DNA from: a virus
Length of the DNA stretch: 64,000 nucleotides
Virus record (IMG/VR): IMGVR_UViG_3300020438_004435
Reading direction: 5' to 3' (one strand)
A model generated the notes under the pieces. The model made no database searches, had not been told where the DNA came from, and was given only the letters and a program-made list of their open reading frames with translations. Made by a program: the position numbers and the translations under genes. Positions 34,938-54,917 of the stretch are shown one piece after another (position 1 is the stretch's first letter; each line of letters starts with the position of its first letter).

Positions 34938-35621
34938 TTATTTTTCCATCTGTTTATAATCGCGCAGATAATGTTTTACCATTCCTATATAATCTGCTGC
35001 TTTAGTTAATTTTGATTGAACCCATGCTTCTAATTGTGCTTCATCCTCAACCATATTATAGATATCCTTAGAATATCTATTAATTTTTCTCATCTGAGCT
35101 CTTACCATTCTTCCTTCATAATCCATTTCAGAATCCTTCATCATTGATCCATCTGGCATTTTATGATATCCATCTGTTGGGTCTTCATCCTGTGCTTTAA
35201 TAACTCCAACCTCTGGACCTTTTTGAAATTTATTCATATATTTCATACCAGTTGATATCGCTCCGGATTCCTTTATATATTTTCCTGATGCACCTTTTTT
35301 CTTTACCTGACCACCTCTTCTCATTGCATCCCTATAATTATTCTTTAACTTTTCAGAAAAATTACTAGCTGCTAATTTAGATAATTTAGTAGATGTAGAC
35401 AATCCTTTTAATGAATTTCTAAATATTTGCCATGTTTTACCACCATAATTTTGGTTTTTTGCCTTATGTTTTGGTATCCCTTCATATTCCTTGAGTTCAT
35501 CCTCACTAGTGCCGCCAGGTGATTTTAATTTTTTACCTTTAGTAGTATGAGTATAGCCACAACTTTCTAAAAATTGTATTAATTCCTCATTAACGATTCT
35601 ATGTATGTCTTTCTTTTTCAT
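34938..35621 (-). CDS. putative internal head protein (modular)
   Basis: LxE-separated modules; YHKMPDG and LEAWVQSKLTKAADY motifs. Confidence 0.6.
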   Translation of the reverse strand: MKKKDIHRIVNEELIQFLESCGYTHTTKGKKLKSPGGTSEDELKEYEGIPKHKAKNQNYGGKTWQIFRNSLKGLSTSTKLSKLAASNFSEKLKNNYRDAMRRGGQVKKKGASGKYIKESGAISTGMKYMNKFQKGPEVGVIKAQDEDPTDGYHKMPDGSMMKDSEMDYEGRMVRAQMRKINRYSKDIYNMVEDEAQLEAWVQSKLTKAADYIGMVKHYLRDYKQMEK

Positions 35622-35647
35622 TTAATATAAATAGTAGTAATCACCTT

Positions 35648-36940
35648 TTAACGCTCATTATTATCGATTTTTGTGTTTTTAACATGTTCAACCCTTATTT
35701 TAATCTGTGGCTTGTAATGATCCGGTGTTCTATCATCAATACCAAAGAATTCAGATTTATCCTGATCCATTCTTATAATAAATTCTAAATCATTAAGGTT
35801 CATCATAATTTGGCCTGTAGTAGATAATATATCCGTTTTATTAGGATTCTTTACCATATCTGCATTTCTAAATGGATTGTTTCTCATATTATCAACTGGC
35901 CAGTAACCACTAAGACCATCTAGTATATCATTAGGTTTCTTTGCCTTATTTAATACCTTTTGAGCTATTGCCCACCTTATTTCAGATGATGATTTACTAG
36001 GTCCAGATGTATATCCAGAATCTTTATATGCATATCCATGATTAGTTCTAGCATGATTAAATTTTCTATTTAATTTTTTTAGGATTGGTTGATGTTCTGA
36101 TGTCAATTCTATAGCAAATGAAGCTTTTGGTGTAGCTATAAATGTATGACCTTTTACTCCTACATCTATTTTATCTTCTCCTGTATAATTAACTATTGAT
36201 TCCATTGCAGCAGCAGGACTCTTATAACTTAAAGCCTTACGTATTTTTAATCCATCCTCAGATGGTTTACCTTTTTTCTTTGCAATCTTCTTTTCTTTTT
36301 CATCTGCGTTTACCATAAGAGCTGAATTAACTATTCCTATACCAAAATTATTCATTCCTTCAGACCAATCAGTATCTTTATCTAGAATATAAACTAATTC
36401 CACATCTCCTAGAAGCTCTCTGACTATAGATACTTTAGCCGTATAAGCTCTATCTCTATTTTTAGCTAGTAATACCTTACCATCTAATACGCTATGTGTT
36501 ATAATGCATTCATTTAAGTCTTTTGATTCATTAGTCTTTATATATTTTGTATACCTTTTCCAATTCCTTTCCGCTCTATGTGCAGCTTTTTCATATGGAT
36601 TATTTGCATATCCTTTTTCTCTATATAATTCAAACTTTTTTCGGTCTTGTGTAGCATGAGTATATTCATGAAGTAAGGCTTTAATTATTTCCTCTACATT
36701 AGTCATCCTAGGTGTATACAAATATATTTTATTTTTATCCCAATCATATTCAGCATGTGGATTTGCTTCTCCAGTAGCCTGTTGATCTCCACTAAGTCTA
36801 GCATAGATATTCGTATGAAATTCTACCTTTGGTATGCCTCTTTTGGCACTACCTAAATTTCTTACAATAAAAGGATACACCTTATCTACTGTATCCTGTT
36901 TATTAAATCCTTCATTTAATATGTCTTTTAGTTTTATCAT
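35648..36940 (-). CDS. leader + HExxH metallopeptidase-like domain + Ntn-hydrolase-like domain
   Basis: MIKLKDILNE leader; LLHEYTH; LNE-CIIT...AKNRD...SEGMN..GI.NSAL. Confidence 0.7.
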   Translation of the reverse strand: MIKLKDILNEGFNKQDTVDKVYPFIVRNLGSAKRGIPKVEFHTNIYARLSGDQQATGEANPHAEYDWDKNKIYLYTPRMTNVEEIIKALLHEYTHATQDRKKFELYREKGYANNPYEKAAHRAERNWKRYTKYIKTNESKDLNECIITHSVLDGKVLLAKNRDRAYTAKVSIVRELLGDVELVYILDKDTDWSEGMNNFGIGIVNSALMVNADEKEKKIAKKKGKPSEDGLKIRKALSYKSPAAAMESIVNYTGEDKIDVGVKGHTFIATPKASFAIELTSEHQPILKKLNRKFNHARTNHGYAYKDSGYTSGPSKSSSEIRWAIAQKVLNKAKKPNDILDGLSGYWPVDNMRNNPFRNADMVKNPNKTDILSTTGQIMMNLNDLEFIIRMDQDKSEFFGIDDRTPDHYKPQIKIRVEHVKNTKIDNNER

Positions 36941-37293
36941 TTTTTCCATCTGGTTGTGCTAAACCAATAAGCTAATATAATTCTATTTAGTTTCTTACCA
37001 TTAGCTCCAAACTGGTGTTTATCTAAATAATTGTCTTTGTGCGCAGGCCAGATATCATCCTCTGTTTTAATAAAGTTATTAAGTAATTTCATCTCTCTCC
37101 TCCAATAACTAGTTGATGGATCCTTGATGTCTGCATTATCTTTATGGATATAAGGATTATGGGGAGGATGGGTTGCTGCCCACTTCAAAATCTTTTTACC
37201 TGTCGCAGGATCATATTTAGCTGTTTTGATTATCTTATCTAAGGTACCCCACTTTATATCGCTTTCATTTAATATGTCTATTAGTTTTATCAT
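36911..37293. repeat. 30-bp direct repeat encoding the MIKL(K/I)DILNE leader
   Basis: 36911-36940 and 37264-37293 differ at one base. Confidence 0.8.
36937..37293 (-). CDS. LxE-leader protein, unknown function
   Basis: MIKLIDILNE. Confidence 0.7.
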   Translation of the reverse strand: MIKLIDILNESDIKWGTLDKIIKTAKYDPATGKKILKWAATHPPHNPYIHKDNADIKDPSTSYWRREMKLLNNFIKTEDDIWPAHKDNYLDKHQFGANGKKLNRIILAYWFSTTRWKK

Positions 37294-37814
37294 TATTTTA
37301 CCAAGCTAGTTACAATTTTTACTTTTGGATATTTTTTCTTTAATTTATCTACTGCTTTTATATTTTTAGGACTATCATCCATAAAGTATATCGGATCATA
37401 CCCTTTTAATATTTCAGCTTCAATATAATCTGCTTTGTCTTGAGGATTTGCACTTCCTAATGGTACTACATAAGGATTGATGCCTATTGTTCTAAAAAAA
37501 TGATTGATAGGTGCACCTAATCGTCTAGCTGTAAGTATCGTTACTTTCCTACCACCTTTCTTTAATTGTTTACGTAATAAGTCTACATTCTTTTTAATTA
37601 GTCTAGGATTACGTAATTTTCTATCGAAATCTCTGAAATCATATTCTTCACCATCTTTTAATGTATGGACGGCAAATTCTGCAGGATCTAATTTATCTAC
37701 TTCCTTTCCATTGAGTGTTACATATACCCATGAATCTGATTTAGCTAATGTATCATCAAAATCAAAGATACTTAACATTCGTGCTTCGAATAATATATCT
37801 TTTAACTTAATCAT
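37293..37814 (-). CDS. HAD-family phosphatase with LxE leader
   Basis: MIKLKDILFE; FDFDDTL, ILTAR, K, FMDDS. Confidence 0.8.
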   Translation of the reverse strand: MIKLKDILFEARMLSIFDFDDTLAKSDSWVYVTLNGKEVDKLDPAEFAVHTLKDGEEYDFRDFDRKLRNPRLIKKNVDLLRKQLKKGGRKVTILTARRLGAPINHFFRTIGINPYVVPLGSANPQDKADYIEAEILKGYDPIYFMDDSPKNIKAVDKLKKKYPKVKIVTSLVK

Positions 37815-38293
37815 TACTTACCTTTTCTCCACGTTCCACCATTTTTCTTATATATTTTTGCTGCGAATGCATTTGCATAAGCTGATGGATAAACCTTATA
37901 TTTTTTCTTAGCTTGGGATTTTGCATACGACCATTTGGCCGCATCAGATGGTATATTCTTTTCTATTAATCTATTGATTTCTTTAAGAAATGTTTCGTTT
38001 TTAGGATCCGTGTTAATCATTTTAGGACTTTTAGAAGGTTTACCTTTACCAGAATAGGCTTTTCTTTTTCTTCTTGTAGCAGATTCCTTATCCTTTTTAC
38101 TCATTGAAGCTGCCTTAGATTTTTTAACACATTTAGGATAAGCTCTTTTACCACCAGATCTTGACTTCTTACCTGCCGATGCTCCACATTCAGGATGCTT
38201 ACCACTTTTAGTTTTTCTAGATACATCAACCCATTTTTCCTTAAACCATTTACCTAATCCACCCTGAACCTCTATTAAATCCATAAGTTTCAT
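37814..38293 (-). CDS. basic conserved phage protein with leader
   Basis: MKLMDLIE; GLGKWFKEKWVD, YPKCV, YPSAYAN. Confidence 0.7.
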   Translation of the reverse strand: MKLMDLIEVQGGLGKWFKEKWVDVSRKTKSGKHPECGASAGKKSRSGGKRAYPKCVKKSKAASMSKKDKESATRRKRKAYSGKGKPSKSPKMINTDPKNETFLKEINRLIEKNIPSDAAKWSYAKSQAKKKYKVYPSAYANAFAAKIYKKNGGTWRKGK

Positions 38294-38295
38294 AA

Positions 38296-38697
38296 TTAGC
38301 TCACATCCATTGATTCATCATAGGTTAATTTAATACCTTGTTTTTTTAGGTCTTTAGCAGCCTTATCTAATTTATCGTGGTCTATATTTCTTAAATATAT
38401 CTTCCAACCTAATAATTTTGATAATGACTCTTCAGCATCTCTCCAACTATCCCAGCCTCTAACCCTTTTCTTTCCATCAATAACAGTTCTATAGAATCTA
38501 CCTCTATCTGTAAACCATATATCTATTGTCTTTATATTAGCTTCATTAACGGGTTTAGCATCTAAAAAAGCTTGATCTACTAAATCTTCATTTTTTACAC
38601 AATTAGGCACTCTTTTACCAAACATTGTTTTTGTGCCCTTTTTGGTATAGCCCTTCCAGCATCTAGTACCTTCTAATATGTCTTTTAATTTAATCAT
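38296..38697 (-). CDS. LxE-leader modular protein
   Basis: MIKLKDILE; CWKGY...VPNCV; internal VNE. Confidence 0.7.
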   Translation of the reverse strand: MIKLKDILEGTRCWKGYTKKGTKTMFGKRVPNCVKNEDLVDQAFLDAKPVNEANIKTIDIWFTDRGRFYRTVIDGKKRVRGWDSWRDAEESLSKLLGWKIYLRNIDHDKLDKAAKDLKKQGIKLTYDESMDVS

Positions 38698-39185
38698 TAT
38701 TTTCCAAATTTTACGTAAGCATTTACCATGTCAGCACCAGCTGCACCTCTATGAGTTTTTATATATGGTCTTGCTGGACCTTTTTGGATTGCTTGTACTA
38801 CCTCTTCCAAACCAAATACTTTACCAGTTTTCGTAATTTGAAAATTTCCATCAACCATCTTTGAAAAGATCATTTTTCCAATTCCTACTGTTTCATTTTT
38901 TTTCATAGCTTTAAGTCTTGTTCTGAGATTGACTCTAAAATTTCTTGCTCTTTGTGAATAGTCTTCATTTAATTTACCTTCAATAACAAAATCACTAAAT
39001 TCACCTATTCTATCATATAAGCCTGCATTATGAGCTAGCCTACCTGTTTTTTTATTCTTCCATGAATTATTACCAATTTTAGTCCAAGGCGAATAACCTC
39101 CACCAGAAGCCTTAGCTCCTTTTTTAGCATTGATAATAGCTTTCATTGCTGATTCTTCATTTAACAATTCCTTTAATTTTATCAT
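38697..39185 (-). CDS. LxE-leader two-module protein
   Basis: MIKLKELLNE; internal GKLNE. Confidence 0.7.
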   Translation of the reverse strand: MIKLKELLNEESAMKAIINAKKGAKASGGGYSPWTKIGNNSWKNKKTGRLAHNAGLYDRIGEFSDFVIEGKLNEDYSQRARNFRVNLRTRLKAMKKNETVGIGKMIFSKMVDGNFQITKTGKVFGLEEVVQAIQKGPARPYIKTHRGAAGADMVNAYVKFGK

Positions 39186-41071
39186 TAGTATTGCTCCATT
39201 CTATCTAATTTAGCCATAAGTTTTTTGAATTCAGCTTTTTTCTTTTTATATTCTTTTTCTTTCTTTTCGATCTCTCTACCATATCTAGTAGCTTTAGGAC
39301 CACCTTCTGGTTCAGCTTCCTGTTCCATATCTTTATGAAGTTGACTTAAGTCTTTTGTAATCATCTTCATATCATATTCTAAATCCATAACAGTATCTTG
39401 CAATTTCCATTTTGCATCTAAATGTTTCCAAACAGATGTAGCTTCGGTCTTTGGTGCTCCACCAGCTCCTGTATAATCCATAATTTCTGAATATAAATCT
39501 TTACCTTTATGTTTACCTTTGTATGTAATTCTATCAGCTTCAATTGGATGAAAACTTCCAGGCATTGATGGTAATTTTATATAAGCTACCTTACCTTTAA
39601 CCTTGTTAACTACACCATATTCTCCGTCATCCATTTTGATAGCATCACCTTTCCGTATCTTAGCTTCTTTTAATTTACCACCTTTAACAATTTTATAGAA
39701 TTGGATAATATCTTTCTTTTCATCTCCAGAGGTTGTAAAATCTTCAACCGATTTTCCTTTTTTAGATATTATTAGTCTAGAGGAATTAGATTTTTTAACT
39801 AATTGATATCCATCCTGATTCGCTATAACACTAAATCTTAATCTTTCTGTTAAATTATTTTCCTTAGCCATTTGAATTTTAGCTGTAGGTATTGAATCAA
39901 TAATCTTTTTAGCCTTTTCAAAATCTTTCTTATCCAATTTCAATGCAGTCATTGTCACAGATAGTCTATTCATCTGAAAACCTTTGATTCCAGCTCTTTC
40001 TAATTCACCTTTCAATTGATTAGGTTTGAAATTTGCTTTGGTTTGTATACCAATCATACTTTCGGTTAATTTGCCTTCTTCTAATTTAGTTATATTTCTA
40101 GCATCTACACCTAACATTTCACCTTTATCCATATTGAGATAGATACCTCCACCTGCTCTCTTCTTCTTTAGAGCATAATCACCAGGACTATATATTGTTC
40201 CATCGATGGTTTGTTTAGTCTTTACTGTAAATCGTTTAGGTAATTTAGCTTCATTAACACCTTCGAAAACTGATTTAATTGATTTACCTCTTAATACATC
40301 TTTACATGCTTTATTAAATGCTTTAAGTGCTTTTGTAGCCAGGCCTTGTTTTCCATCTTGTTTATTTTCAATAGCTATATTTAAGTAACTAGCTACATCT
40401 TCAGCTACTTCATCATCTATTCTATCAAACCTATCTGATAAATCTAGTAATGCGTCTTCAGACATAGTCTTCCAACTAACCTTTGAACCTAGCGTTAATA
40501 ATGGTTTTAGACCTCTTGCCAATTTTTCATTTAATTTGTATATTCTTTCATTTAATTTGTATATTGATAATAAATGTTTGTTTTCTAAGGTAGTAAGTTT
40601 ATTACCTGAACGTTTAATGATTAAATTATCTTTCTTCATCATTACAGCTAATGCTCTACCAAAATCTTTTCCTTGAGGTCCTTTATTAGGAATACTACTC
40701 CATTGTTTTGCTTTTTTATTTGCCCATGCTAACCATACCTGTCTTAATGCGAGAAATAAATATGTGCCATCTCCACGATTATCTTTTAGAGCTTTTAATA
40801 AGATATTCTTTACTGCTGATCTATTTTTATATGCCCATTTCTTAAAGTCTAAATATGCAAACTCGTTAGGAGTATCTTGAAACATTGGTCTTTGTTCATT
40901 TAATTCAGTAATTGATCCATCTGTTGATAATATATCAGATGCTTTAGTCCTACCTGTACCTTTGTTATATGATACACTGTAGTATGTTTTACCATTATAA
41001 TCCTTAACATTTGTTATAACGCCTGGACTACCTAGATATTTTACCTTATCACCTTTCTTAAATTGTTTCAT
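39185..41071 (-). CDS. putative polyprotein of small domains joined by LxE linkers
   Basis: ELNE, KLNE x2, GVNE, KLEE/KLTE, NLTE, KLKE, LYSE junctions. Confidence 0.65.
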   Translation of the reverse strand: MKQFKKGDKVKYLGSPGVITNVKDYNGKTYYSVSYNKGTGRTKASDILSTDGSITELNEQRPMFQDTPNEFAYLDFKKWAYKNRSAVKNILLKALKDNRGDGTYLFLALRQVWLAWANKKAKQWSSIPNKGPQGKDFGRALAVMMKKDNLIIKRSGNKLTTLENKHLLSIYKLNERIYKLNEKLARGLKPLLTLGSKVSWKTMSEDALLDLSDRFDRIDDEVAEDVASYLNIAIENKQDGKQGLATKALKAFNKACKDVLRGKSIKSVFEGVNEAKLPKRFTVKTKQTIDGTIYSPGDYALKKKRAGGGIYLNMDKGEMLGVDARNITKLEEGKLTESMIGIQTKANFKPNQLKGELERAGIKGFQMNRLSVTMTALKLDKKDFEKAKKIIDSIPTAKIQMAKENNLTERLRFSVIANQDGYQLVKKSNSSRLIISKKGKSVEDFTTSGDEKKDIIQFYKIVKGGKLKEAKIRKGDAIKMDDGEYGVVNKVKGKVAYIKLPSMPGSFHPIEADRITYKGKHKGKDLYSEIMDYTGAGGAPKTEATSVWKHLDAKWKLQDTVMDLEYDMKMITKDLSQLHKDMEQEAEPEGGPKATRYGREIEKKEKEYKKKKAEFKKLMAKLDRMEQY

Positions 41072-41700
41072 CTTGGAGTTCTCCTTACTGGTCTGGTCGA
41101 TCTTTTATTAGTATTGACCTTTATATTATTTCTATTTGTATTGACCTTTATATTATTTCTATTTGTATTTACTTTAACATTATTTCTATTTGTATTTACT
41201 TTAACATTATTTCTATTTGTATTGATTTTTACATTATTTCTATTTGTATTAATCTTTACATTATTTCTATTTGTAGATTTTACTTTATTAATTGAAGGTC
41301 TTGGAGTATATGTTCTACCCTTGCCATTATTAAATTTGGATCCTCTAGGATTTCTTACTATTCTTGAATTATTTAATTGAATAGAAACATGTGTGTGAGA
41401 ACTATAAGTGTAAGGGGGTAGTATGGTATACCAATACCACCACGGATATAAATGTGGTACACCATAATAATAATAAAAATTGTTATGGAATCCCCAATAT
41501 GGTAAATCATCATGATAATAAACCTGTGTCGAGTGATCTCTGGAATCACAACATGAATGATCAGATAGACAATGTTGCCCTCTTTCCATTAATTCACAAT
41601 TATGAGCCTGTGAACTGTATGTGCCTTCATAGATTGTGCATCCTGACATCATTGCTAGACTTATTATTATAATTAAATTTTTCATATTATTTTCCTTCAT
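41068..41700 (-). CDS. lipoprotein with Tyr/His-rich core and 9-aa tandem repeat tail
   Basis: Lipobox-like MMSGC; (NRNNVKINT) x6. Confidence 0.7.
   Translation of the reverse strand: MKENNMKNLIIIISLAMMSGCTIYEGTYSSQAHNCELMERGQHCLSDHSCCDSRDHSTQVYYHDDLPYWGFHNNFYYYYGVPHLYPWWYWYTILPPYTYSSHTHVSIQLNNSRIVRNPRGSKFNNGKGRTYTPRPSINKVKSTNRNNVKINTNRNNVKINTNRNNVKVNTNRNNVKVNTNRNNIKVNTNRNNIKVNTNKRSTRPVRRTPR
41111..41274. repeat. 27-bp coding tandem repeat x6
   Basis: Unit GTATTGACCTTTATATTATTTCTATTT with synonymous and conservative variants. Confidence 0.9.
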
Positions 41701-42316
41701 GCATTTTATGATGTTCCCATGCTAAATCCGAAACCACCTTCATAAATTGTTTTCTAGCTTTTTTGTATATTGATTTATGTTTCGATTCCTTTAACCCTCT
41801 TTCAAATTTATCTAGGTCCACAGTTAGAAAGTTTTGTAGTGCTGTAATTTTACTAAATTCAGATCCACCATATTCGCTTACTAATTCAGCATCTCTATCT
41901 AGCATAGTAATTACTCTTTCCATTTCAGCTTCTGCCTTTTTTCTTTTTGCGGTAAGCTGTCGAGCTATATCCATATATTTTTTAGTATCCTTTCCTGCTG
42001 CCTTAGCTGCTTTGTATTTGTCTATATTAGCCAACATTACTAAATTTATTTTAGATACTGCATCATATGCTTTGGATATATCCTTTGCACCTACTTTTGC
42101 TTCTGTCTTCATGCCTAATTTACCTTTATATAATTTAACAAGTCTTGCATTGCCAGCTGATTGATGTTTTCTTAAAAGTCTTTTATGATCTTTATCAGGG
42201 TTAGCTGTAGTATGTTCGTATGGTCCATCCTTATATGTTACAGGCTTACCATCCTTCTTTGCCTTTTTCTTTTTAGCTATAGCAATAGCCGCATTTTGAG
42301 CTATTGATTTCCCCAT
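41687..42316 (-). CDS. basic modular hypothetical protein
   Basis: ORF track; internal KTE and VSE junctions. Confidence 0.65.
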   Translation of the reverse strand: MGKSIAQNAAIAIAKKKKAKKDGKPVTYKDGPYEHTTANPDKDHKRLLRKHQSAGNARLVKLYKGKLGMKTEAKVGAKDISKAYDAVSKINLVMLANIDKYKAAKAAGKDTKKYMDIARQLTAKRKKAEAEMERVITMLDRDAELVSEYGGSEFSKITALQNFLTVDLDKFERGLKESKHKSIYKKARKQFMKVVSDLAWEHHKMHEGK

Positions 42317-43335
42317 TAGTATGCTCGTCCTAAAGTTTTAACATCAACATATGCTTTAGCTTTATCAAGTTTAGATAGTTCCATTTTCAATTTATTGAAT
42401 TCATCTTTAACTTCTTTAGCTTTGTTAGCCATTGATGATTTTTCATAGTCGACGCTATATTTAGCTTGATCTGGTTTATCTTTATACTTGGCTTTAACCG
42501 CTTCTATATTAGCTCCTGCTCGCATATATTCTTCGAATGCTCTAATCATATAATTATATCTATGTCCAATAGTTTTTACTGTATCAGCGTAATATGAATC
42601 TCTTGGAATAAATCCTTGTTTCATTTTAGTAAGCTTTTCTTGTAGAGCTGCTTCATACATTTTAGTAGCTGTTTCTAATAATTTTATTATTGGACCTTTA
42701 CCAGCTTCTCCTGCTTTTATAGTCAATGCTTTTCTATATCTAGCTATATTATCTTGTTTCATTTTTTTAGCGTCCATCATTGCCGTTGCACCTGCTTTTG
42801 CAGCTGCTCGATCTGCGATTTTCTGTTTTGCACCTCTAGCTGCTTCATCTGGATCTAAATGGTATACCTGTGCACCATCAATTTTCATTATATCTTTAAT
42901 AGAAGCAAATCCACGTTTATCTAATCCGATAAATGCTCTGCCTGATCCTGCTCCTGTTCTGATGCCTCTACCTATCCATACTCTTTTACCTTTAATTGTA
43001 ACCGCTAATAGTTGACCTGCTCCTATACGAGTTCTCCAGTCATATCTAGAGGAAGCTGGTATTTCTGTATCTTTTGAAGCTATTACTATATCAATACCTT
43101 TGTTATCTATTCGCGTGTCAGGACCCTTTACCATATCATCAGTAAGTTGATCCCATTGAACTCCATATTGTCTAGCCATATCATCTAAAAATGATTTGTC
43201 TTTACCCCATTTACCTACCTTTCCAAATAATGATGCTATTTTTCTAGATGCAAATTTTTCATTAAGAATTAATTTAGATTCCTTAATAATTGATGTTAAT
43301 TCTTCCTTGATAATTTTTCTAATAATTTTTTTCAT
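42316..43335 (-). CDS. LxE-leader protein, unknown function
   Basis: MKKIIRKIIKEELTSIIKESKLILNE. Confidence 0.7.
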   Translation of the reverse strand: MKKIIRKIIKEELTSIIKESKLILNEKFASRKIASLFGKVGKWGKDKSFLDDMARQYGVQWDQLTDDMVKGPDTRIDNKGIDIVIASKDTEIPASSRYDWRTRIGAGQLLAVTIKGKRVWIGRGIRTGAGSGRAFIGLDKRGFASIKDIMKIDGAQVYHLDPDEAARGAKQKIADRAAAKAGATAMMDAKKMKQDNIARYRKALTIKAGEAGKGPIIKLLETATKMYEAALQEKLTKMKQGFIPRDSYYADTVKTIGHRYNYMIRAFEEYMRAGANIEAVKAKYKDKPDQAKYSVDYEKSSMANKAKEVKDEFNKLKMELSKLDKAKAYVDVKTLGRAY

Positions 43336-43341
43336 AATTTC

Positions 43342-43731
43342 CTAACCCTTAAATATTTGTTTTTTACCGCCATTATATACGTATGCATGGCCTTCAGTTA
43401 TAAGTGCATCATTAATACATATTTGTTTACCATCCTTATCCATAATAAATAGTTCTCCAAGGACTCTACCATATTTACCTAGACCATAAGATTTTAATCT
43501 AAAGTATCCTGGTTTATCACTTACTTCCTCTATTAATTGTTTATTTCTTGCTTTAGCAGCTAGACCTAATTTTTTTTCTTCAAGGTCTCTTGTTCGGCTT
43601 TCCCATGCATCAAGACCTTTATATCTGATTCTTTTTTTGACCCAAATATCAAACCCTACGTCAATCATTGCATCAACCGTATCACCATCAACTACTCTAT
43701 CTAACTTTGCTCTGTAAATATACTTTTCCAT
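43342..43731 (-). CDS. thermonuclease (SNase family)
   Basis: RVVDGDTV, RIRYKGLDAWE, GKYGRVLG, LITEGHA. Confidence 0.9.
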   Translation of the reverse strand: MEKYIYRAKLDRVVDGDTVDAMIDVGFDIWVKKRIRYKGLDAWESRTRDLEEKKLGLAAKARNKQLIEEVSDKPGYFRLKSYGLGKYGRVLGELFIMDKDGKQICINDALITEGHAYVYNGGKKQIFKG

Positions 43732-46700
43732 TATTTCCCTAAAACTATTCTTCTATTATATATTACGTTATTATATTCAATGTATAAATTATATACTCCT
43801 GGTTTATAATTTGCAATATCAATTGGCTCTTTAACATCCTTAATAAACATTATATTATTACCTAACATATCAGTAATACCAACATCAAATGAGCCTTTTG
43901 CCTCTATTATAAATAGGCCTTTTGTAGGATTAGGATATATTTTTATGCTATTTCTATCAATTAGATCTGTAGTAGATAAGGGATCTCCAAATGCACAATT
44001 ATTATATTGTGATTGACAAAAGTTATCCCATTGATTGTTTAAGCAATAAGGATCTACCTCATATACTACCCATGCATAACAGGTATCATTTAACCAATAC
44101 GGATTTCCAGCTCCTGTTACTGTATTTAGGTCATAGTATAAACAGCTACCATCATCAGTATTGGCTAGTGGATCATAATTGTTAACTATTACAGTATTAA
44201 ATCCTGGAATATAGTTTGGATAAGTATTATATAAATAACCTTGAAAGTCATAATCATCTGTACATCCGTAAACTGTTGCAATACAAGTTCCATTATCTAC
44301 ATTTGCTAAAGGATCATAATTAAATGCTGTTGAATCAGTACAACCAAATATCTGAGCTATACAAGGATCTGATACATCTGTTGATGATACCTGATTTGTA
44401 TTACAGGGTGCGCAATAATTAAGAGCTGGTAATCCATCTCCATTAAAATCATTACCTTGACCATCATCCATACATCCATATATAAATGGTACACAAACAT
44501 TAGCTGGTTGTGTATTTGCTAATGGATTATAATTAAACATTGTAGTATCCATGCATCCATAAACAAAAGGTATGCAAGATCCATTGTCTACATTTGCTAG
44601 TGGATTGTAATTAAACATTGTAATATCCATACATCCAAACACTTTTGTTATACATGTTCCATTTTCTGTATTTGCTAATGGATTATAATTAAGTGCTGGC
44701 AATCCATCTCCATCATAATCAATAACAATTCCATCATCCATACATCCTAATACTACTCCTATACAACTACCATCATCAATATTTGCTAGAGAATTATAAT
44801 TGAATGATATTGGATTCATACATCCATATACCGCTAGATCTGTACAGCTTCCATTATCGTAGTCTGCAGTAAATCCTTGAGTCCAGAATTGAAGATACAA
44901 TGGATCAGTACAACCTGGATTATAATAACATGAGCCATCTAATGTATTTGCTAGAGGGTTATAATTAGCTGCAGTTGCATCTGTACATCCATATATAAAT
45001 GGAATACATGTCCCATTATCAGTATTAGCTGCTGGATTATAATTCCACATTGTAGAATCCATACAACCATATATAAATGGTATACAACTACCATCGGCTA
45101 AATTAGCTTGTGGGTTATAGTTAAATTGTGTAGCATCCATACATCCATATATAACGGAATCAATACACGAGCCATCATCATAATCAGCTGTAAATCCTTG
45201 ATTCCAAAATTGTATAAAATTAGGATCAGTGCATCCAGGAGCATAATAACAAGAACCATCTGTTGTATTTGCAAGTGGATTAAAATTAGCAGCTGTCATA
45301 TCCATACACCCATATACAAAAGGAATGCAGGTTCCATTATCCGTATTGGCTAGTGGATTATAGTTAAACATAGTAGTATCCATACAACCATAAATATATG
45401 GAACACAGGACCCATTATCAATATTCGCATTAGCATTATAGTTGAACATTGTATTATCCATACAACCATATAATACAGAATCAACACAACTACCATCATC
45501 AAAATCCGCTACAAAACCTTGCGTATAAAATTGTAGGAAATTTGCATCAGTACAACCTGGATTATAGTAACAACTATTATCATTCGTATTTGCTAATTGA
45601 TCCCAATTTGCCGCAAGAGGATCAGTACAGCCGTATATAAATGGAACACATGTTCCGTTATCAGTATTGGCTAATGGATTATAATTCCACATTGTAGAAT
45701 CTGTACATCCATAGATATATGATACACAGCTGTTATCATTAGTATTAGCGTTAGGGTCATAATTTAACGCAGTAGGATCGGTACAACCATATATAAATGG
45801 TATACAGGTACCATTATCTGTATTGGCTAGAGGGTCATAATTAAATGCTGTTGTATCTGTGCAACCATAAATAAAAGGTTCACAACTTCCATTATCTGTA
45901 TTGGCTAATATATCATAATTCCACATAGTAGGATCAGTACAACCATATATAAATGGTATACATGAACTATCACTAGTATTTGCAAATACATCATAATTCC
46001 ACATCAATGGATCTATACATCCATAAATAAATGGAATACAACTTCCGTCATTAGTGTTTGCTAATGAATCATAATTATACATTGTAGAATCGGTACAGCC
46101 GTAAATATAAGGTATGCATGAACCATCATCTGTATTTGCTAATATATTATAATTTAATGCCGTTGAGTCTGTACATCCTAATTGTTCTGCTATACAACTT
46201 CCATCGTCTGTATTTGCTAAGGCATTATAATTTATAGCAGTTGAATCTGTACATCCATATAGGAAAGGTATGCATGTTCCATCATTTGTATTTGCTAATG
46301 GATCATAATTTAACATTGTAGAATCTGTACATCCATAAACATAAGGTAGGCATGAACCATTATCAGTATTGGCGGTTATATCGTAGTTCCACATTGTAGA
46401 GTCCATACAACCATATATTACTGGAATACATGAATAATCTTCTGTATTACAAAAAGAACAATAATTAAATGCTGCTGGATCCAAACATCCAAATACTTTT
46501 GTTATACATGGATCTGTTGTATCAACTACAGAGGTCCATTGAACTGTAGCATATTGATCGAAATTAAACATAGTTGAATCAGTACAACCAAATATTGCAT
46601 ATGTACTACAAGATCCATCATTAAAGTCTGCAACGTATCCTTGTGTATGATATTCTAGATAAGCTGGATCAGTACATCCAGGATTAAAATAACAAGATGT

Positions 46701-48851
46701 ATCTGATGTATTTGCTAATGGGTTATAATTTACTGCTAATGGATTAGTACATCCGAATACTCTCGGTATGCAAACATTACCACAAAGAGCGGTTCCAGTA
46801 TAATAATGTTGATATAGGTTATATTCTAAAATTGGATCAGTATAAGGATTAGTTCCACCTGTTGCAATAACAGTTCCTATAGGATTTATTATTGCAAACA
46901 TACATTGTTCCGATGTGGTTTGGGAGTTACCAAATGAGTAGAAAAATACTTTTACTTCGTGTGCTGTATTCAAAGGTATAGCAGTAGTAAATGTTGAACC
47001 GGTATCAACAGTGAAAGGACCCCAATGATTATTACCTTGAGTTACTACTAAAAATGATCCTGCCCATCCATTACCTGCCCAATCAGTTAAAACCAAAGTA
47101 TTAAGACAACCAGGATTTAACTGCATGCTAGTTACAGTTGGATCATAATTAAATGCTGCTGGATCTGTACAACCATAAGTGTGAGGTGTTATACAGAATG
47201 TGGTGTCCATCTGATTAGCAAGAGGATTATATTCTACAAAATTAGGATTAGTACATCCTACAATTAAATTTGTTATACAGCTATTTACGGTTCCGGTATC
47301 AGAATAATTATATCCAAAATCTCCTCCTCCCATCGAAATAGTATCACAGTCAGTATATACTATCCATTCTCCATCTATACCACCAAATTGAGCTCCACCC
47401 AATCCATCACCGTATGAATCATTTATTTGAAACTCAATAGGCATTCCATTATCTATACAGATTTCTTGTGTTACTATTGCTCCTGTAGGAAATCCTGAAT
47501 ATGTTCCTTGTGTAACTTGAGTATGTATTCCAACGGAGTCAAATAATATCCATCCTGTTTCATTAGCATATTGATCTAACATTATTTCGATTGTTAGTTT
47601 TGTTTTTCCTGGAGAACATACAATGCCTCCTCCACCTACACATGTTCCATCATCTTGAGTTGCTGCTGGATTATAGTTAGTTGATGTTGAATCCATACAA
47701 CCTGTAATAAATAAACAGCTACCATCATCTAATCCTGCTGTATCAACATAATTTATTGCTAGTGAATCGGTACAACCTTCGATGTATTCACAAGGTGAAA
47801 TATACCAATAATCCCCTACTGTAACAGGAGCATATAATCCACCACTAGGATCAAAAGTCCAGATATTTCCATCAGCTTGTGATTGATTTCTTACTACATA
47901 AACTAGAATAGCGGGACTATTGCAATTTTGTGGCCAGTCAATACCATCAACAAAATACTCGTTACCATCTAACCATATTTTATTTCCTACATCCCATGCT
48001 GTTATATTACCAATCCAATCCATAAAGGATATACCAAAGTAGTTTGCAGTCCATTGTTGAGTGTTACAAGTTCCACCTGCAGCTACATATCCACTTACAA
48101 AACCTTGAGTAGCAGTTGAATCATAATTGTAAGCTATAGGATCTTGACAACCGAATATATAAATACAAAGTCCATTGTCTTGAGTAGCAAGTGAGTCATA
48201 ATTTTCTGCAATAGTGTCCATACAACCATAGAGGTATGTACAGCTTCCATCATTACCAGTAGCCAAAGAATCATAATTTTCTGCAATACTATCCGTACAA
48301 CCCCAGATTGGAGGGTTACCTATTTCTACATCATCTATAGCAATATCACTAGTCCAACTAATTCCTGTTTCTGCTTCGAATGATACTAAAAAATTACCCA
48401 CTAAACCTAAACTGTCGAGTGGGTATGCTTTGAAAAGCCAAAAATCTCCTTGATCACCCACGATTGAATCTAAATGAAACCATCCATTATCATCGTGAAT
48501 AAAAATATCTAGACGACCCATGTCGTCTCCATACATATGATACCAGAATTTTAATGCTTGACCTGGTGTTCCTGATATATCGAATGAATCGGTTTGGCAT
48601 ACAAATAATTTTTCTGGATGATTAGGAACAGATGATTCTACATACCAGTAATTACCACCACCTGTCATATCATCCGAAGGGCCTGTATTTACCGACCAAG
48701 TAGGACCTGAATTTAATATCCAATCACCATCATCGTCTTGTATGTTTTCTAAATCTCCACCGGTATCAAAATTTTCTATCCATGGAAATGAGGTTATTTG
48801 TGTATGACCTAATAAAGGTATCAGTAGTAGTAGTAGTATTAATTTTTTCAT
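43731..48851 (-). CDS. giant secreted protein: MAM-like domain, about 38 GC(T/M)D...NY...ANxxxGSC repeats, T9SS type A CTD
   Basis: Signal peptide; FWYHMYG..MGRL...DIAIDDV (MAM); C-terminal IYPNP...DMLG...GVYNL...RIVLGK. Confidence 0.85.
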   Translation of the reverse strand: MKKLILLLLLIPLLGHTQITSFPWIENFDTGGDLENIQDDDGDWILNSGPTWSVNTGPSDDMTGGGNYWYVESSVPNHPEKLFVCQTDSFDISGTPGQALKFWYHMYGDDMGRLDIFIHDDNGWFHLDSIVGDQGDFWLFKAYPLDSLGLVGNFLVSFEAETGISWTSDIAIDDVEIGNPPIWGCTDSIAENYDSLATGNDGSCTYLYGCMDTIAENYDSLATQDNGLCIYIFGCQDPIAYNYDSTATQGFVSGYVAAGGTCNTQQWTANYFGISFMDWIGNITAWDVGNKIWLDGNEYFVDGIDWPQNCNSPAILVYVVRNQSQADGNIWTFDPSGGLYAPVTVGDYWYISPCEYIEGCTDSLAINYVDTAGLDDGSCLFITGCMDSTSTNYNPAATQDDGTCVGGGGIVCSPGKTKLTIEIMLDQYANETGWILFDSVGIHTQVTQGTYSGFPTGAIVTQEICIDNGMPIEFQINDSYGDGLGGAQFGGIDGEWIVYTDCDTISMGGGDFGYNYSDTGTVNSCITNLIVGCTNPNFVEYNPLANQMDTTFCITPHTYGCTDPAAFNYDPTVTSMQLNPGCLNTLVLTDWAGNGWAGSFLVVTQGNNHWGPFTVDTGSTFTTAIPLNTAHEVKVFFYSFGNSQTTSEQCMFAIINPIGTVIATGGTNPYTDPILEYNLYQHYYTGTALCGNVCIPRVFGCTNPLAVNYNPLANTSDTSCYFNPGCTDPAYLEYHTQGYVADFNDGSCSTYAIFGCTDSTMFNFDQYATVQWTSVVDTTDPCITKVFGCLDPAAFNYCSFCNTEDYSCIPVIYGCMDSTMWNYDITANTDNGSCLPYVYGCTDSTMLNYDPLANTNDGTCIPFLYGCTDSTAINYNALANTDDGSCIAEQLGCTDSTALNYNILANTDDGSCIPYIYGCTDSTMYNYDSLANTNDGSCIPFIYGCIDPLMWNYDVFANTSDSSCIPFIYGCTDPTMWNYDILANTDNGSCEPFIYGCTDTTAFNYDPLANTDNGTCIPFIYGCTDPTALNYDPNANTNDNSCVSYIYGCTDSTMWNYNPLANTDNGTCVPFIYGCTDPLAANWDQLANTNDNSCYYNPGCTDANFLQFYTQGFVADFDDGSCVDSVLYGCMDNTMFNYNANANIDNGSCVPYIYGCMDTTMFNYNPLANTDNGTCIPFVYGCMDMTAANFNPLANTTDGSCYYAPGCTDPNFIQFWNQGFTADYDDGSCIDSVIYGCMDATQFNYNPQANLADGSCIPFIYGCMDSTMWNYNPAANTDNGTCIPFIYGCTDATAANYNPLANTLDGSCYYNPGCTDPLYLQFWTQGFTADYDNGSCTDLAVYGCMNPISFNYNSLANIDDGSCIGVVLGCMDDGIVIDYDGDGLPALNYNPLANTENGTCITKVFGCMDITMFNYNPLANVDNGSCIPFVYGCMDTTMFNYNPLANTQPANVCVPFIYGCMDDGQGNDFNGDGLPALNYCAPCNTNQVSSTDVSDPCIAQIFGCTDSTAFNYDPLANVDNGTCIATVYGCTDDYDFQGYLYNTYPNYIPGFNTVIVNNYDPLANTDDGSCLYYDLNTVTGAGNPYWLNDTCYAWVVYEVDPYCLNNQWDNFCQSQYNNCAFGDPLSTTDLIDRNSIKIYPNPTKGLFIIEAKGSFDVGITDMLGNNIMFIKDVKEPIDIANYKPGVYNLYIEYNNVIYNRRIVLGK

Positions 48852-48853
48852 TT

Positions 48854-51265
48854 TTATAAATTCCCTTTAAGTGATATTATGAAATTTCTTCCTGGTGCAG
48901 AAATACCAGATGCGAAAGTTCTGTAGTGTTGATCTAGAATATTTTCAATTCCAAATTGTATTTTAAGGTTATCATTAACCTTGTATTGAGCCGAAGTATT
49001 TAGCGTCCACCAAGAAGGGTAACCTTCATCGGTTCCTAAATCGTCATTATCGACACCGCTAGAATTCATTTCTTCTATATACTTCCATGCAGTGTATATT
49101 CCCCAAATTTTATATTCTAGCTTGCCTGTCTTAATCTTAAATAATGATTTTCCAAATGCAGGAGGTATGTGACCTAGTGGTTCATTATTAGATACATCCC
49201 ATCCTTTTTGCCAAGTAAATGATTCCTCATAGAATAACAAATCTTTGTATAATCTTGATTTTACACCAAATGACCATCCATAAATATATGCCTCAGGTGA
49301 GTTCATTAATGTCTGAACATTTACATCTTCATACTCATGTATTTGAGAATATCCTAAATCTTGTTTTACAATTGCATCCTTCAGGTGTGTATAAAATACG
49401 TTACCTGTACTTTGCATTCTTGGCTTTTTCCAGGTAATACTCATTTCACCATTATATGCATACTCTGGAGTTAGATCCGGATTAGGTATAACCATATTAC
49501 CTTTCTTAACAAATACCTTCCCATAATCATCTATATTTGGATTTCTAAATCCTGATGAAGCTACCCAATCAAATTTCCATTTTTCCGATGGTTTATAAAT
49601 TAAATTAAGATTACCTGTAAGAGCCCCATTATTAAATTCAATCTCATCCGTTACAAATACAGGATCAGTATCTCTAAACACCATATCACCTATAACTCTT
49701 GAATACCTTAATCCAGCATTCCAAACAAAAAATCTATTTACCTCTTTTTTATATGAACTATATAATGCTGCAGTTGATAAATTACTACCACCAGATGGAT
49801 ATCTTGCTTGAGTGCCTTCAGTTGCTGTTGATAATACATTATTATGGGTTAATTCTATTCCATAAACTAATTTATCTAATGAGAAGTCCCAATTAAAACT
49901 AAATACATCTACATCTATATATGTGTTATTATATTCCTCTGATTGATATTTTCTAGTAATCCTATCCTCTTCTATAAATTGATATGCTAATGTAATATTA
50001 TGACTATTAAAGAATTTATTTGTGGTATATGTGTTTATATCTAAAGAAGACATAAATCTTGTTTGAGGTCCATAAGACCATTCACTCCATTTTAATGTTC
50101 CATCCTTATATTCCTGAAGGTTATCATATCTTGGTATATTTGTTGTAGTAGAGAATTGATTGTTAAATCTTACAAAAACATTTTCTGATGTTCTCCATGC
50201 CATGTTGTTTAATATATCTATTTGTCTATATCCTGTGCCGATTTGTATATAAGGATTTTCATTTGATACCATCTGATCATTTTCATCCATATAATAGTTT
50301 ACTAATCCCCAATCACTATATCCATGAGGTCTCCATTGACCCATTTTAAGATCTCCAAATTCCTTAGCTGTTATAGAAAGAAAATTAGCAAAATTATCAC
50401 CACCAATATTATTACTTACATGAAAGGAGTATTCATTGGCTGCAGATCCATATCTAACTTCCGCATTTGTTTTATAGTATGTTTTATCATTTTTACTAAA
50501 TACTGGCTTTTTAGTATAAAAATGAACTACTCCTCCTAATGCATCACTACCATAAATTGTTGATGATGGACCAAAAACCACTTCAACTATTTCTAATGCA
50601 TTTGGATCTACTGTTAAAGCATTTTGTAAATGACCTGAACGATAAATTGCATTATTCATTCGGACTCCATCTACTACCAACAATACTCTATTAGCTTCAA
50701 ATCCTCTAATGATAGGTGAACCTCCGCCTAATTGAGATTTTTGTATAACTACACCTTGATTTGCAGTAAGAAGATCAGCTGTTGTAGATGCATTTGCATT
50801 TTGAATTTGTTTTACATCCAGGGATTGTATTTGGTAGGCTACATTTTCTCGAAGCTCTCTTGCCTTACTAGCTGATATAACGACATCTTCTAAATATTTT
50901 GATGATTGAGCTAATAAGATTACATAATCCTTCTTAGCCATTTCCTCTTTACTAATGTGCCGGGATTCATAACCAATAAAAGATATTGTAATTAATATAA
51001 CATCCGACTTAAATATAGAAAGATCTGCTTGACCATTTATATCTGTAGTAGTTCCTTTGCGTATAGAGTCTTTGAATGTCGTATTATTTCCAGGACTTAT
51101 AAGTAATTGTTTAGATACAATATTAGCAAAAGGAATAGGTTCTAATGTTTGCTGATCCTTTAGCGTTAAGGTTTGTGCGTTAATTGTTTGAGTCATTAGG
51201 AGTAATATTAAAAATACTATATAACCTAATAACAATTTGGAAGATGACCATTTTGTTGTTTTCAT
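48854..51265 (-). CDS. TonB-dependent receptor (Bacteroidota type, heme/iron-receptor-like)
   Basis: Signal peptide, carboxypeptidase-regulatory-like domain, plug (SPIIRGFEANRVLLVVDGV, GPSSTIYGSDALGGV), barrel ending ENILD..Y...PGRNF. Confidence 0.92.
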   Translation of the reverse strand: MKTTKWSSSKLLLGYIVFLILLLMTQTINAQTLTLKDQQTLEPIPFANIVSKQLLISPGNNTTFKDSIRKGTTTDINGQADLSIFKSDVILITISFIGYESRHISKEEMAKKDYVILLAQSSKYLEDVVISASKARELRENVAYQIQSLDVKQIQNANASTTADLLTANQGVVIQKSQLGGGSPIIRGFEANRVLLVVDGVRMNNAIYRSGHLQNALTVDPNALEIVEVVFGPSSTIYGSDALGGVVHFYTKKPVFSKNDKTYYKTNAEVRYGSAANEYSFHVSNNIGGDNFANFLSITAKEFGDLKMGQWRPHGYSDWGLVNYYMDENDQMVSNENPYIQIGTGYRQIDILNNMAWRTSENVFVRFNNQFSTTTNIPRYDNLQEYKDGTLKWSEWSYGPQTRFMSSLDINTYTTNKFFNSHNITLAYQFIEEDRITRKYQSEEYNNTYIDVDVFSFNWDFSLDKLVYGIELTHNNVLSTATEGTQARYPSGGSNLSTAALYSSYKKEVNRFFVWNAGLRYSRVIGDMVFRDTDPVFVTDEIEFNNGALTGNLNLIYKPSEKWKFDWVASSGFRNPNIDDYGKVFVKKGNMVIPNPDLTPEYAYNGEMSITWKKPRMQSTGNVFYTHLKDAIVKQDLGYSQIHEYEDVNVQTLMNSPEAYIYGWSFGVKSRLYKDLLFYEESFTWQKGWDVSNNEPLGHIPPAFGKSLFKIKTGKLEYKIWGIYTAWKYIEEMNSSGVDNDDLGTDEGYPSWWTLNTSAQYKVNDNLKIQFGIENILDQHYRTFASGISAPGRNFIISLKGNL

Positions 51266-51269
51266 TTCA

Positions 51270-52807: not shown

Positions 52808-52812
52808 TTATC

Positions 52813-52977: not shown

Positions 52978-52989
52978 TTGATTCTCCGT

Positions 52990-53367
52990 TTATTTAATTA
53001 TGTCGTGACCACCGAGCGTTTTTAATTTAAGGTCTATTGCTTTGAACTCTACGTCAATTTCTTTTGTAATATCAAATACTTTTTTTTCTAGAGTGTTAAT
53101 TGTTTTAATTTTTTTATCTAATCTTTGTTCTACCGTCTCAATCTCCAGTTGTAATTTATCTTCTAGAGTTACGAATTTATCTAAAACCATTGCTGTTTCT
53201 TCTTCAAAAGCTTCATCAAATATTTTTTGTTTTTCCTCGAATATATGGATTTGATTTTTCATTGCATTAAATTCTCCATATATAATACCTAAGGTAAATA
53301 CAAATCCAATAAGGGTAATCCACATTTGTGGATCTATTTTTTCTAAATAGCTTTTTGTTACAGGCAT
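52990..53367 (-). CDS. membrane-anchored coiled-coil protein
   Basis: TM then long heptad repeat. Confidence 0.65.
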   Translation of the reverse strand: MPVTKSYLEKIDPQMWITLIGFVFTLGIIYGEFNAMKNQIHIFEEKQKIFDEAFEEETAMVLDKFVTLEDKLQLEIETVEQRLDKKIKTINTLEKKVFDITKEIDVEFKAIDLKLKTLGGHDIIK

Positions 53368-53368
53368 T

Positions 53369-53956
53369 TTATCTCTCCAACGTTATTTCTCTGTACTGGT
53401 AATGAGCTCCAGTTAGTTCTAATTCATCGTCATAACGTCTTATATTTTCAAGTACCCACTTGTTATAAGTTTTATATGTAGTTGTCCACTCTTCTGTATC
53501 TAACCCTAAATAATATGTAGCTGGAACATATACATAATCATAAGGTGTTGTATTGCAAAGTGGTTTTTCTGCTTTCCAATTCCATCCTAGAATGGATGAA
53601 TCTTGTAGTGTTGAGTTGTGATTATTACCCCATCTCATATTGGATGGATATCCTTCTGCACGTGTTCCGTATATTAAATCAAATTCTGCTGCACCATTAA
53701 ATATTACGGTTCCAATATCAAATGTAGAATCATTAACATATTCCACCCAGGCAGATACATCTAATCTGAATCCTTCCTCTAATAAATAAAATTTAGTGAT
53801 ATTCCATTCACCTGCAATCTCAGTAGGATCTACTGCCTCTGGTAAAGTAAATGGCTCTACAGGTTCTTTTTCACATGATACTACTAATAGTGTCCAAAAT
53901 ATAACCAGTATAGCCAGATAAATTTTATTAAGATTTGATTTGACAAACATTTGCAT
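53369..53956 (-). CDS. lipoprotein (lipocalin-like Bacteroidota type)
   Basis: LLVVSC-EKE lipobox with acidic +2/+3 residues; IAGEWNIT. Confidence 0.7.
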   Translation of the reverse strand: MQMFVKSNLNKIYLAILVIFWTLLVVSCEKEPVEPFTLPEAVDPTEIAGEWNITKFYLLEEGFRLDVSAWVEYVNDSTFDIGTVIFNGAAEFDLIYGTRAEGYPSNMRWGNNHNSTLQDSSILGWNWKAEKPLCNTTPYDYVYVPATYYLGLDTEEWTTTYKTYNKWVLENIRRYDDELELTGAHYQYREITLER

Positions 53957-53968
53957 ATAAATAACTTT

Positions 53969-54487
53969 TTATCTTTTACGGTTGATGATTTCCATCATAT
54001 GCATCTTTACAAATGCTATATCTCTTGTCATATCCGTCATTGGTGTCATATTTGCTCCCGTACAACCTAATTCATATGCAAATAAAGCTACATTATCAAT
54101 TGATGTTTCTATTTGTTCTGGAGCTGCTGAATCTTCTTCTACTACATCCTTCTCTATACCAAAAACTATATCAAGAAATTTTGCTGCTTTAGCTGCATAT
54201 ACCTGAGCTAATTTATTTGAATTTTCTGGTGTTATTTTTTTGAATAATAATACAGCCGATTTGCATATATCAAAATGTTTTGTTTGATAACCAAATACTT
54301 CAATATTTTCTCCGCTTCCAAAATGACCTGGCTTATCACCTTCTTCTTGTTCATTCATTCTTTTGCCATATGTATCAGTTACTGCGAATGGAGGATTATC
54401 CTTCATTGTATTAACGGCTCCTATTCTTCCACCGTTTACACGCATCATTTTTTCACTTAATAAGTCTTTTAATTTTAATCTTTTCAT
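53969..54487 (-). CDS. LxE-leader modular protein
   Basis: MKRLKLKDLLSE; internal RMNE. Confidence 0.7.
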   Translation of the reverse strand: MKRLKLKDLLSEKMMRVNGGRIGAVNTMKDNPPFAVTDTYGKRMNEQEEGDKPGHFGSGENIEVFGYQTKHFDICKSAVLLFKKITPENSNKLAQVYAAKAAKFLDIVFGIEKDVVEEDSAAPEQIETSIDNVALFAYELGCTGANMTPMTDMTRDIAFVKMHMMEIINRKR

Positions 54488-54506
54488 TTTATTTCCCTTT
54501 TAATAA

Positions 54507-54917
54507 TTAGGATGCCTTTCCAATAACGTTTACTCTTTTAAGAGCTGCTAGAAATTTATCTGTATCTACATAAGCCTCACCAATGTCTTTTGTTTTCATA
54601 GAAACTCCCTTACCTGCATAAGGTTCTGTTAATTTATCAACATATAAATGTGTAACATTAACTTCCTTATCTCTTAAATAAAGTTGTCTTTGGTGTAGCT
54701 TAAATTGTCCTTCCTTTGTTTCAATAACGTGATATTGCACATGAACAAACATTTTACCACCTTCAAAAGATTTAATTCTAGCTAATGCTTTTCTATCTGG
54801 AGCTACTCCTCTGAATCCTATTTTATTTAATATACTACCTACAGCACTTGGATTAACTTCACGATCTACCTGGAAATTCATTGATGTAAATTCTTTTAAC
54901 AATTGTTTTAATTTCAT
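54507..54917 (-). CDS. LxE-leader protein
   Basis: MKLKQLLKE. Confidence 0.7.
   Translation of the reverse strand: MKLKQLLKEFTSMNFQVDREVNPSAVGSILNKIGFRGVAPDRKALARIKSFEGGKMFVHVQYHVIETKEGQFKLHQRQLYLRDKEVNVTHLYVDKLTEPYAGKGVSMKTKDIGEAYVDTDKFLAALKRVNVIGKAS

Follow-up and report, generated by a model that had tools for sequence, protein, structure and literature searches.

The T4-type capsid-targeting system has been known since the 1990s. In T4, the capsid-targeting sequences (CTS) of the internal proteins IPII/IPIII and IPI and of Alt are removed by the prohead protease gp21 (Mullaney & Black 1996; PMC9026906, PMC3012670). For packaging, the N-terminal ten residues of IPIII are enough; of these, positions 4 and 7 govern targeting and positions 8 and 10 govern processing, with cleavage by gp21 after L/I-x-E (PMC9026906). 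The internal proteins of T-even phages are diverse, and the CTS is the sole part that they have in common (PMC3012670). In phiKZ and SPN3US, the ejection and inner-body proteins carry propeptides that are processed by the gp175/gp245 proteases, which cut after S/A/G-x-E (PMC5694885, PMC10052503). Here, we describe a ten-residue N-terminal leader, MIKLKDILxE, that recurs on otherwise unrelated proteins encoded in a 64 kb stretch of a large marine phage (IMG/VR record IMGVR_UViG_3300020438_004435). This stretch is referred to as the window, and coordinates refer to it. By analogy with T4, we consider it likely that the leader is a T4-type capsid-targeting propeptide.

The leader resembles the T4 CTS in its length of ten residues, its hydrophobic residues at positions 4, 7 and 8, its acidic residue at position 6, its Glu at position 10, and its [L/I]-x-E ending. 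At the targeting positions, T4 has Y4 and F7, whereas the leader has L4 and I/L7. As in the T4 internal proteins, the tag stands on otherwise unrelated, mostly basic proteins. Also as in T4, relatives of the window phage have genes for a protease of the gp21 family and for a head core of the T4 type, and the ADP-ribosyltransferases (ARTs) among the cargo resemble Alt. The relevant N-termini of T4 (NC_000866) are MKTYQEFIAE for IPII/IPIII, MAKINELLRE for gp24 and MLKEQLIAE for gp22. In sequence, the propeptide of gp24 comes closest to the leader, with identity at M, K3, L8 and E10 and conservative replacements at positions 4, 6 and 7. The gp24 protein is cut exactly after Glu10, and its T4 record reads 'cleaved by gp21'. 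The vertex protein gp24 and the scaffold protein gp22 are structural head proteins and gp21 substrates, whereas here the motif has spread to accessory enzymes.

The differences from T4 concern the sequence itself, the very distant lineage (its capsid protein is ~27% identical to T4-type ones) and the probable Bacteroidota host. Moreover, MIKLKDILxE is far more conserved across divergent phages than is the T-even CTS, and tagged genes number 8-12 per genome here versus 3-5 in T4, with >100 cargo clusters across the clade. Unlike in T4, several modules may follow one leader and are separated by predicted internal cut motifs. The likeness to phiKZ and SPN3US lies in the predicted gp21-type processing C-terminal to Glu of many head-packaged proteins, which in those phages is performed by a diverged gp21 homologue. 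Their propeptides are long, share no common 10-residue leader and have another cleavage motif. Literature searches found no description of the MIKLKDILxE leader. A secretion signal of the Sec, Tat or lipoprotein type was considered and rejected: the leader comprises only 10 residues, alternates charged and hydrophobic positions (K3, K5, D6, E10) and lacks a hydrophobic core of 7-15 residues. Genuine signal peptides in the window, such as MKKLILLLLLIPLLG at 48851, differ from it.

Exact MIKLKDILxE is encoded at a minimum of 120 IMG/VR sites, as located with a degenerate DNA pattern. By a rough estimate, chance would produce at most ~1 such site in the whole collection. The pattern loci and the relatives together provided 257 leader proteins, which form 113 BLAST clusters. 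Leader positions 1-8 and 10 are near-invariant, position 10 being Glu by selection of the 193 aligned leaders, while position 9 and all positions from 11 onward are variable. Specifically, L4 occurs in 191/193 leaders, I/L7 in 192/193 and L/I/V8 in 192/193, and the conserved block stops exactly at Glu10. Ten near-invariant residues followed by an unalignable remainder indicate strong selection on the leader itself. Common descent of paralogues, with bodies diverged past recognition and an N-terminus of no specific function, would match the clustering and similar small size of the genes. It would also match one large BLAST cluster, whose 61 members are linked by a small basic Cys motif. Such descent is nevertheless scarcely credible for cargo with clearly unrelated folds (Ntn hydrolase, HAD, ART, M23, RNase_T, NUDIX and ATP-grasp).

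The leader is found on several consecutive genes in the IMG/VR relatives L001-L003, which are 67-85% identical to the window across its 430-aa protein (see below); some of these genes have no homology to the window cargo. The near-complete contigs G006, G009 and G015 (166-173 kb) have 16-25 window genes in common with the window, at 30-70% identity. Leader genes number 4-12 per genome in these six relatives, on differing cargo, and 7-12 in the three near-complete contigs. The cultured relative Flavobacterium phage vB_FspM_immuto (NC_055915; L154-L161) has a single canonical leader, MIKLIDLLTE at 24569. Its other recurring N-termini that end hydrophobic-hydrophobic-x-E are MENFDLKKFLVEN, present three times together with the near variant MADNFNLRSFLTEN, MKKQILSEQF, present twice, and MKKSxLxxIIKE-like ones. 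Based on these recurring types, one phage may use several leader classes.

In the window, all ten N-termini that a preliminary description had grouped as one family were recovered at the same starts on the minus strand, which carries every gene of the window. Eight are strong members with the start pattern M(I)KLKD(I/L)LxE: six consecutive genes (35648-39185) and two at 53969-54917. The variants at 35621 (MKKKDIHRIVNE) and 43335 (MKKIIRKIIKEE...LILNE) are weaker, and both end hydrophobic-hydrophobic-x-E. The core motif K[LI]x[DEQNKST][LI][LI]x(0-1)E occurs 8 times in the open frames of the window, always at or next to a start codon: 7/8 occurrences directly follow M or Mx, and the MKRLKLK variant accounts for the remaining one. 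No occurrence was found in five shuffles of the window. The mature parts of the ten proteins are, as had been claimed, mutually unrelated, with a best pairwise BLASTP E of 0.22 after leader removal. Nine of the ten have a pI > 9, compared with 23% of the remaining proteins encoded in the window (Fisher p = 1e-4).

The six consecutive genes are as follows. Cargo gene 1 (38697..39185, 162 aa) has the leader MIKLKELLNE at 39156-39185. Cargo gene 2 (38296..38697, 133 aa) has MIKLKDILE at 38671-38697 and contains a small basic Cys motif. The leader of cargo gene 3 (37814..38293, 159 aa) is short, MKLMDLIE at 38270-38293. That of cargo gene 4 (37293..37814, 173 aa), which encodes a HAD-type phosphatase-like protein, is MIKLKDILFE at 37785-37814, and that of cargo gene 5 (36937..37293, 118 aa), which has no family match, is MIKLIDILNE at 37264-37293. 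Cargo gene 6 (35648..36940) encodes 430 aa from the ATG at 36940, with MIKLKDILNE at 36911-36940 followed by a HExxH (DUF3920-like) domain and a Cys-Ntn-hydrolase domain. Position 36940 is the probable start, rather than the first ATG at 36949, because MIKL is where relatives begin and the upstream stop codon directly adjoins 36940. Of the two remaining strong members, cargo gene 7 (54507..54917, 136 aa) has MKLKQLLKE at 54891-54917, and cargo gene 8 (53969..54487, 172 aa) has the extended leader MKRLKLKDLLSE at 54452-54487. The weaker variants mark two possible cargo proteins, of 227 aa (34938..35621) and 339 aa (42316..43335). The leader of the latter resembles the MKKxxLxxIIKE leaders of vB_FspM_immuto; no homologue of this protein was found.

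Most of the window cargo had no annotation in Pfam and PHROGs. The set comprises the HAD-type phosphatase-like protein, the zincin-like HExxH protein with its Ntn hydrolase, small basic Cys-motif proteins and several proteins without a family match. The phosphatase-like protein has a DxDxT motif, matches phrog_415 (E = 2.9e-7) and has leader-bearing orthologues in L001, L002, L003 and G006; a tblastn search of cultured phages with it returned no match. Behind the identical leader, relatives encode ART-PolyVal (1e-27), ADPrib_exo_Tox, Peptidase_M23 with phage tail lysozyme, cell-wall hydrolase and RNase_T domains, as well as NUDIX, Zeta-toxin-like kinase with NT5C, RimK ATP-grasp, FMN reductase and PRTase domains. 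ARTs, such as T4 Alt, and peptidoglycan hydrolases are classes that travel in virions.

The leader-bearing relatives have the corresponding head machinery. Peptidase_S77, the family of T4 gp21, was found in 10/10 near-complete leader-bearing contigs (G006-G010, G011-G014 and G015). It was not found in contigs G001-G005 and G016-G019, which are only 4-68% complete. In the 3/3 contigs inspected (G006, G009 and G015), a T4-type head module encodes the large terminase, a gp20-like portal, the S77 protease, a gp22-like scaffold and a gp23-like capsid protein. Like gp22 and gp24, the scaffold and a small core protein of these relatives start with the same kind of motif as the leader: the scaffold N-termini are MDGKSDLLKE and MGDLLKE, and those of the small core protein adjoining the protease are MRIKDLLE and MAKLKNILQE. 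The capsid protein begins with MKISSLLE and has a predicted maturation site, L(V/L)KE, ahead of the conserved core. In G015, the head module contains canonical leader genes at 128177 and 128713. Cargo gene 7 of the window has weak homology to a leader-bearing protein that is encoded beside the head module of G006, next to the terminase gene.

Two side observations concern this region. In Chryseobacterium phage MA9V-1 (OR050627 126501-130544; L008), the S77 prohead protease domain forms the N-terminal portion of a protein of 1347 aa, and genes near it start with short peptides that end in INE or NE before Ala (MSNYINEA, MKGFFINEA). In the window, a 69-aa protein (MPAKSQAQQKFF...STKHKG) encoded at 34496-34705 on the minus strand looks by eye like the N-terminus of a 502-aa protein of G015 (126669-128177), encoded close downstream of the S77 protease. 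By eye, it is also similar to the N-terminus of a frame of 285 aa in L052; this frame runs on into a segment resembling the start of the 227-aa protein of the window.

The predicted cut motif also occurs inside the cargo proteins. We considered modules that stand directly behind the leader in one protein and are internal in a homologue. In 7-9 of 22-24 such cases, the internal junction coincided exactly with [LIVMF]xE, compared with a background of 1.7%. Three such junctions are in the window. The module past the LNE junction of cargo gene 1 (38964-38972) stands directly behind the leader in L001, and that past the VNE junction of cargo gene 2 (38542-38550) stands directly behind the leader in L002. 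The third is the LNE of cargo gene 6 (36509-36517). A fourth window junction, MNE in cargo gene 8 (54350-54358), has the counterpart LNE in its L092 homologue. In L111 and L031, the C-terminal domain of the 227-aa protein comes after a canonical MIKLKDILNE leader. Cargo gene 3 has homology to the C-terminal region of longer proteins, also leader-bearing, in G006 and G015. As a side observation, the adjacent minus-strand gene at 39185-41071 encodes a 628-aa protein without a canonical leader. Its last 86 residues, which follow ...PKTE, are a separate 101-aa open reading frame (ORF) in L001, in which ...VNE precedes the homologous stretch; L030 and L003 match other pieces of the protein. Judging by these matches, the 628-aa protein has the appearance of a chain of modules linked by xxE sites.

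The junction in cargo gene 6 directly precedes the Cys at 36506-36508. Modelled from this Cys, residues 145-430 of the 430-aa protein (the C-terminal 286) adopt a predicted Cys-Ntn hydrolase fold (pTM 0.82). A fold search with this domain returned at least 100 PDB chains at E <= 0.001; among the matches listed were penicillin V acylase (PVA), bile salt hydrolase (BSH), IAT and NAAA. A sequence-profile search against PDB sequences gave no match. The Cys and an NRD motif are invariant. By the model, residues 145-430 would thus be a Cys-Ntn hydrolase of the PVA/BSH/C45 type, with predicted catalysis. [L/I]xE stands directly before the catalytic Cys in 6/6 lineages: KDLNE in the window, MINE in L001, MIKLRNLLHELNE in G006, ELKE in L003, PIEE in L004 and MTSANNNEFLNE in Chryseobacterium phage MA9V-1, which has an annotated S77 protease. 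In L001, the hydrolase is a separate ORF and MINE is a propeptide of 4 residues. Cys-Ntn enzymes require their nucleophile Cys as a free N-terminus.

The earlier proposal of the leader as a candidate T4-like capsid-loading signal is therefore supported by the match in length and pattern, the Glu boundary, the >100 cargo clusters, the S77 protease in 10/10 contigs, the head-core N-termini and the exchange of modules at [L/I]xE; all comparative tests that were run agree with it. Several points weigh against it. The residue after Glu is highly varied (A, G, M, V, S, T, I, N and others). The 10/10 count for S77 covers leader-bearing contigs only, and these are phylogenetically not independent. An S77 protease of the window phage itself would lie beyond its 64 kb and is predicted from the relatives, and the window does contain a ClpP-like protease (see below). 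Literature searches found no virion proteome of a leader-bearing lineage. Finally, codons 5-7 of the leader are nearly fixed as AAA-GAC-ATA: the frequencies are 96%, 70% and 96% at loci L009-L128, versus 75%, 19% and 44% in gene bodies. The same leader genes use GAT and ATT freely outside the leader, and the D-I dipeptide is written GAC-ATA in 8% of 1388 gene-body cases. This near-fixation implies some nucleotide-level constraint beyond the peptide model, on nt 13-21 of the leader, which may have a secondary role at that level.

The codon bias bears on an explanation in which the 30 nt act as RNA or DNA, either as a Bacteroidota translation-initiation region or as a homology block for cassette exchange, and the peptide is a by-product. 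This would also fit the translational coupling of many leader genes and the shuffling of genes with conserved flanking cassettes in T4-type phages (PMC2839356, PMC4122927). It is nonetheless quite improbable. At leader codons 2, 3, 4, 8 and 10, synonymous variation is like that of gene bodies, so selection acts mainly on the peptide; the amino acids are fixed or conservatively exchanged (I/L, D/E/N/Q, K/R), and 97 distinct 30-mers occur among 114 leaders. Across 115 leader loci, no conserved DNA was found before the ATG or after codon 10, with information content ~0 from -50 to -1 and beyond +30. The block ends exactly at the Glu codon, and [L/I]xE recurs at internal joints where there is no start codon. 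A mobile cassette of the promoter plus stem-loop type (PeSL) was likewise rejected in view of the lack of flanking conservation at these loci.

A 30-bp repeat with one mismatch (36911-36940 versus 37264-37293) had been taken in the preliminary description to suggest that the leader is copied as a DNA module. The repeat is real, and its identity is confined to the leader, with none beyond 30 bp. Copying is a weak reading of it, given that selection is mainly on the peptide. By our estimate, the 29/30-nt match, one such pair among 15, is not strong evidence of recent copying, since a shared peptide and codon bias would produce matches of this kind fairly often.

The ClpP-like protease is encoded at 2318-2995 on the minus strand, far from any head gene, and matches the 'head maturation protease' family phrog_94 (E 1.9e-30). 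Its presence would suit a leader that serves as a propeptide or recognition tag for a process other than prohead entry, such as degradation or activation by a ClpP-like protease or intracellular sorting. Many cargo proteins being ordinary cytoplasmic-type enzymes would suit this as well, their packaging being argued by analogy. However, the gene has no homologue in the leader-rich G006, G009 and G015, by which it was ruled out as the leader-processing protease. In addition, the leader ends in the gp21 motif and mimics the N-termini of the T4 CTS, gp24 and gp22, and the relatives' scaffold and capsid protein begin with the same motif. We regard a tag for another process as unlikely; all three alternatives are less likely than a capsid-targeting propeptide.

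Since the tag closely resembles the T4 head-loading tag, the tagged proteins are probably enzymes that travel inside the virion and enter the cell together with the DNA. We infer docking, cleavage, packaging and injection by analogy with IPI-III, Alt and gp24 of T4. The amphipathic leader would dock the new protein on the scaffolding core during prohead assembly. A gp21-family (S77) protease would then cut after the Glu of [I/L]-[I/L]-x-E and at similar internal [L/I/V]-x-E joints, and the mostly basic mature proteins, freed inside the head, would leave with the DNA at infection. In the 430-aa protein, the cut at LNE would expose the N-terminal catalytic Cys, such that head maturation would double as zymogen activation. 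More tentatively, the leader and the internal [L/I]xE joints could form a plug-and-play cargo grammar of an abundant marine and freshwater clade of T4-like phages that infect Bacteroidota. Any domain placed behind either element would be loaded into the head, cut free by the prohead protease, sometimes switched on by the cut (as for the Ntn-hydrolase zymogen) and injected.

Proteins that enter the cell with phage DNA act ahead of any phage gene expression, and those of T4 include anti-restriction and host-takeover factors. The novelty here lies in the phage lineage and the leader sequence, in the size of the cargo set and in the cut motif serving as a joint between modules. Because the mechanism is that established for T4, what is gained is breadth and predictive value rather than a new principle. 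If such a cargo grammar exists, >100 families of first-minute effectors could be predictable from sequence alone. With a tag that marks injected proteins, the effectors of this abundant aquatic phage group, which are numerous and for the most part unannotated, could be catalogued straight from metagenomes; ARTs, kinases, nucleases, cell-wall hydrolases and an Ntn hydrolase with a zincin domain are among them so far. Such a tag would further be a candidate means of loading foreign proteins into phages of Bacteroidota.

Sequence comparisons suggest that the window phage is a member of a distant T4-like clade. A megablast search of INPHARED phages with 8.5 kb of the window returned no match, nor did searches for exact 30-41-mers in IMG/VR and in JGI metagenome contigs. 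The CobS-like ATPase of the window has homologues on 192 IMG/VR contigs (61-74% identity). The capsid protein of G009 shares 57% identity with its counterpart in Flavobacterium phage vB_FspM_immuto, 38% with that of Rhodothermus phage RM378 and ~27% with those of enterobacterial T4-like phages. A Bacteroidota host fits the window phage, as the window contains genes for a T9SS-sorted protein and a TonB receptor. The gene for the former lies at 43731-48851 on the minus strand. Its product of 1706 aa has a signal peptide and, at the C-terminus, a T9SS-type sorting domain, together with a Cys-containing repeat of 26 aa (78 nt) that is present in ~25 copies; G006 and G009 encode homologues. The TonB-dependent-receptor-like gene lies next to this gene, at 48854-51265. 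A further repeat-containing gene, at 41068-41700 on the minus strand, encodes a predicted membrane or lipoprotein-like protein whose C-terminal part consists of six tandem 27-nt repeats (NRNNVKVNT units, 41076-41291).

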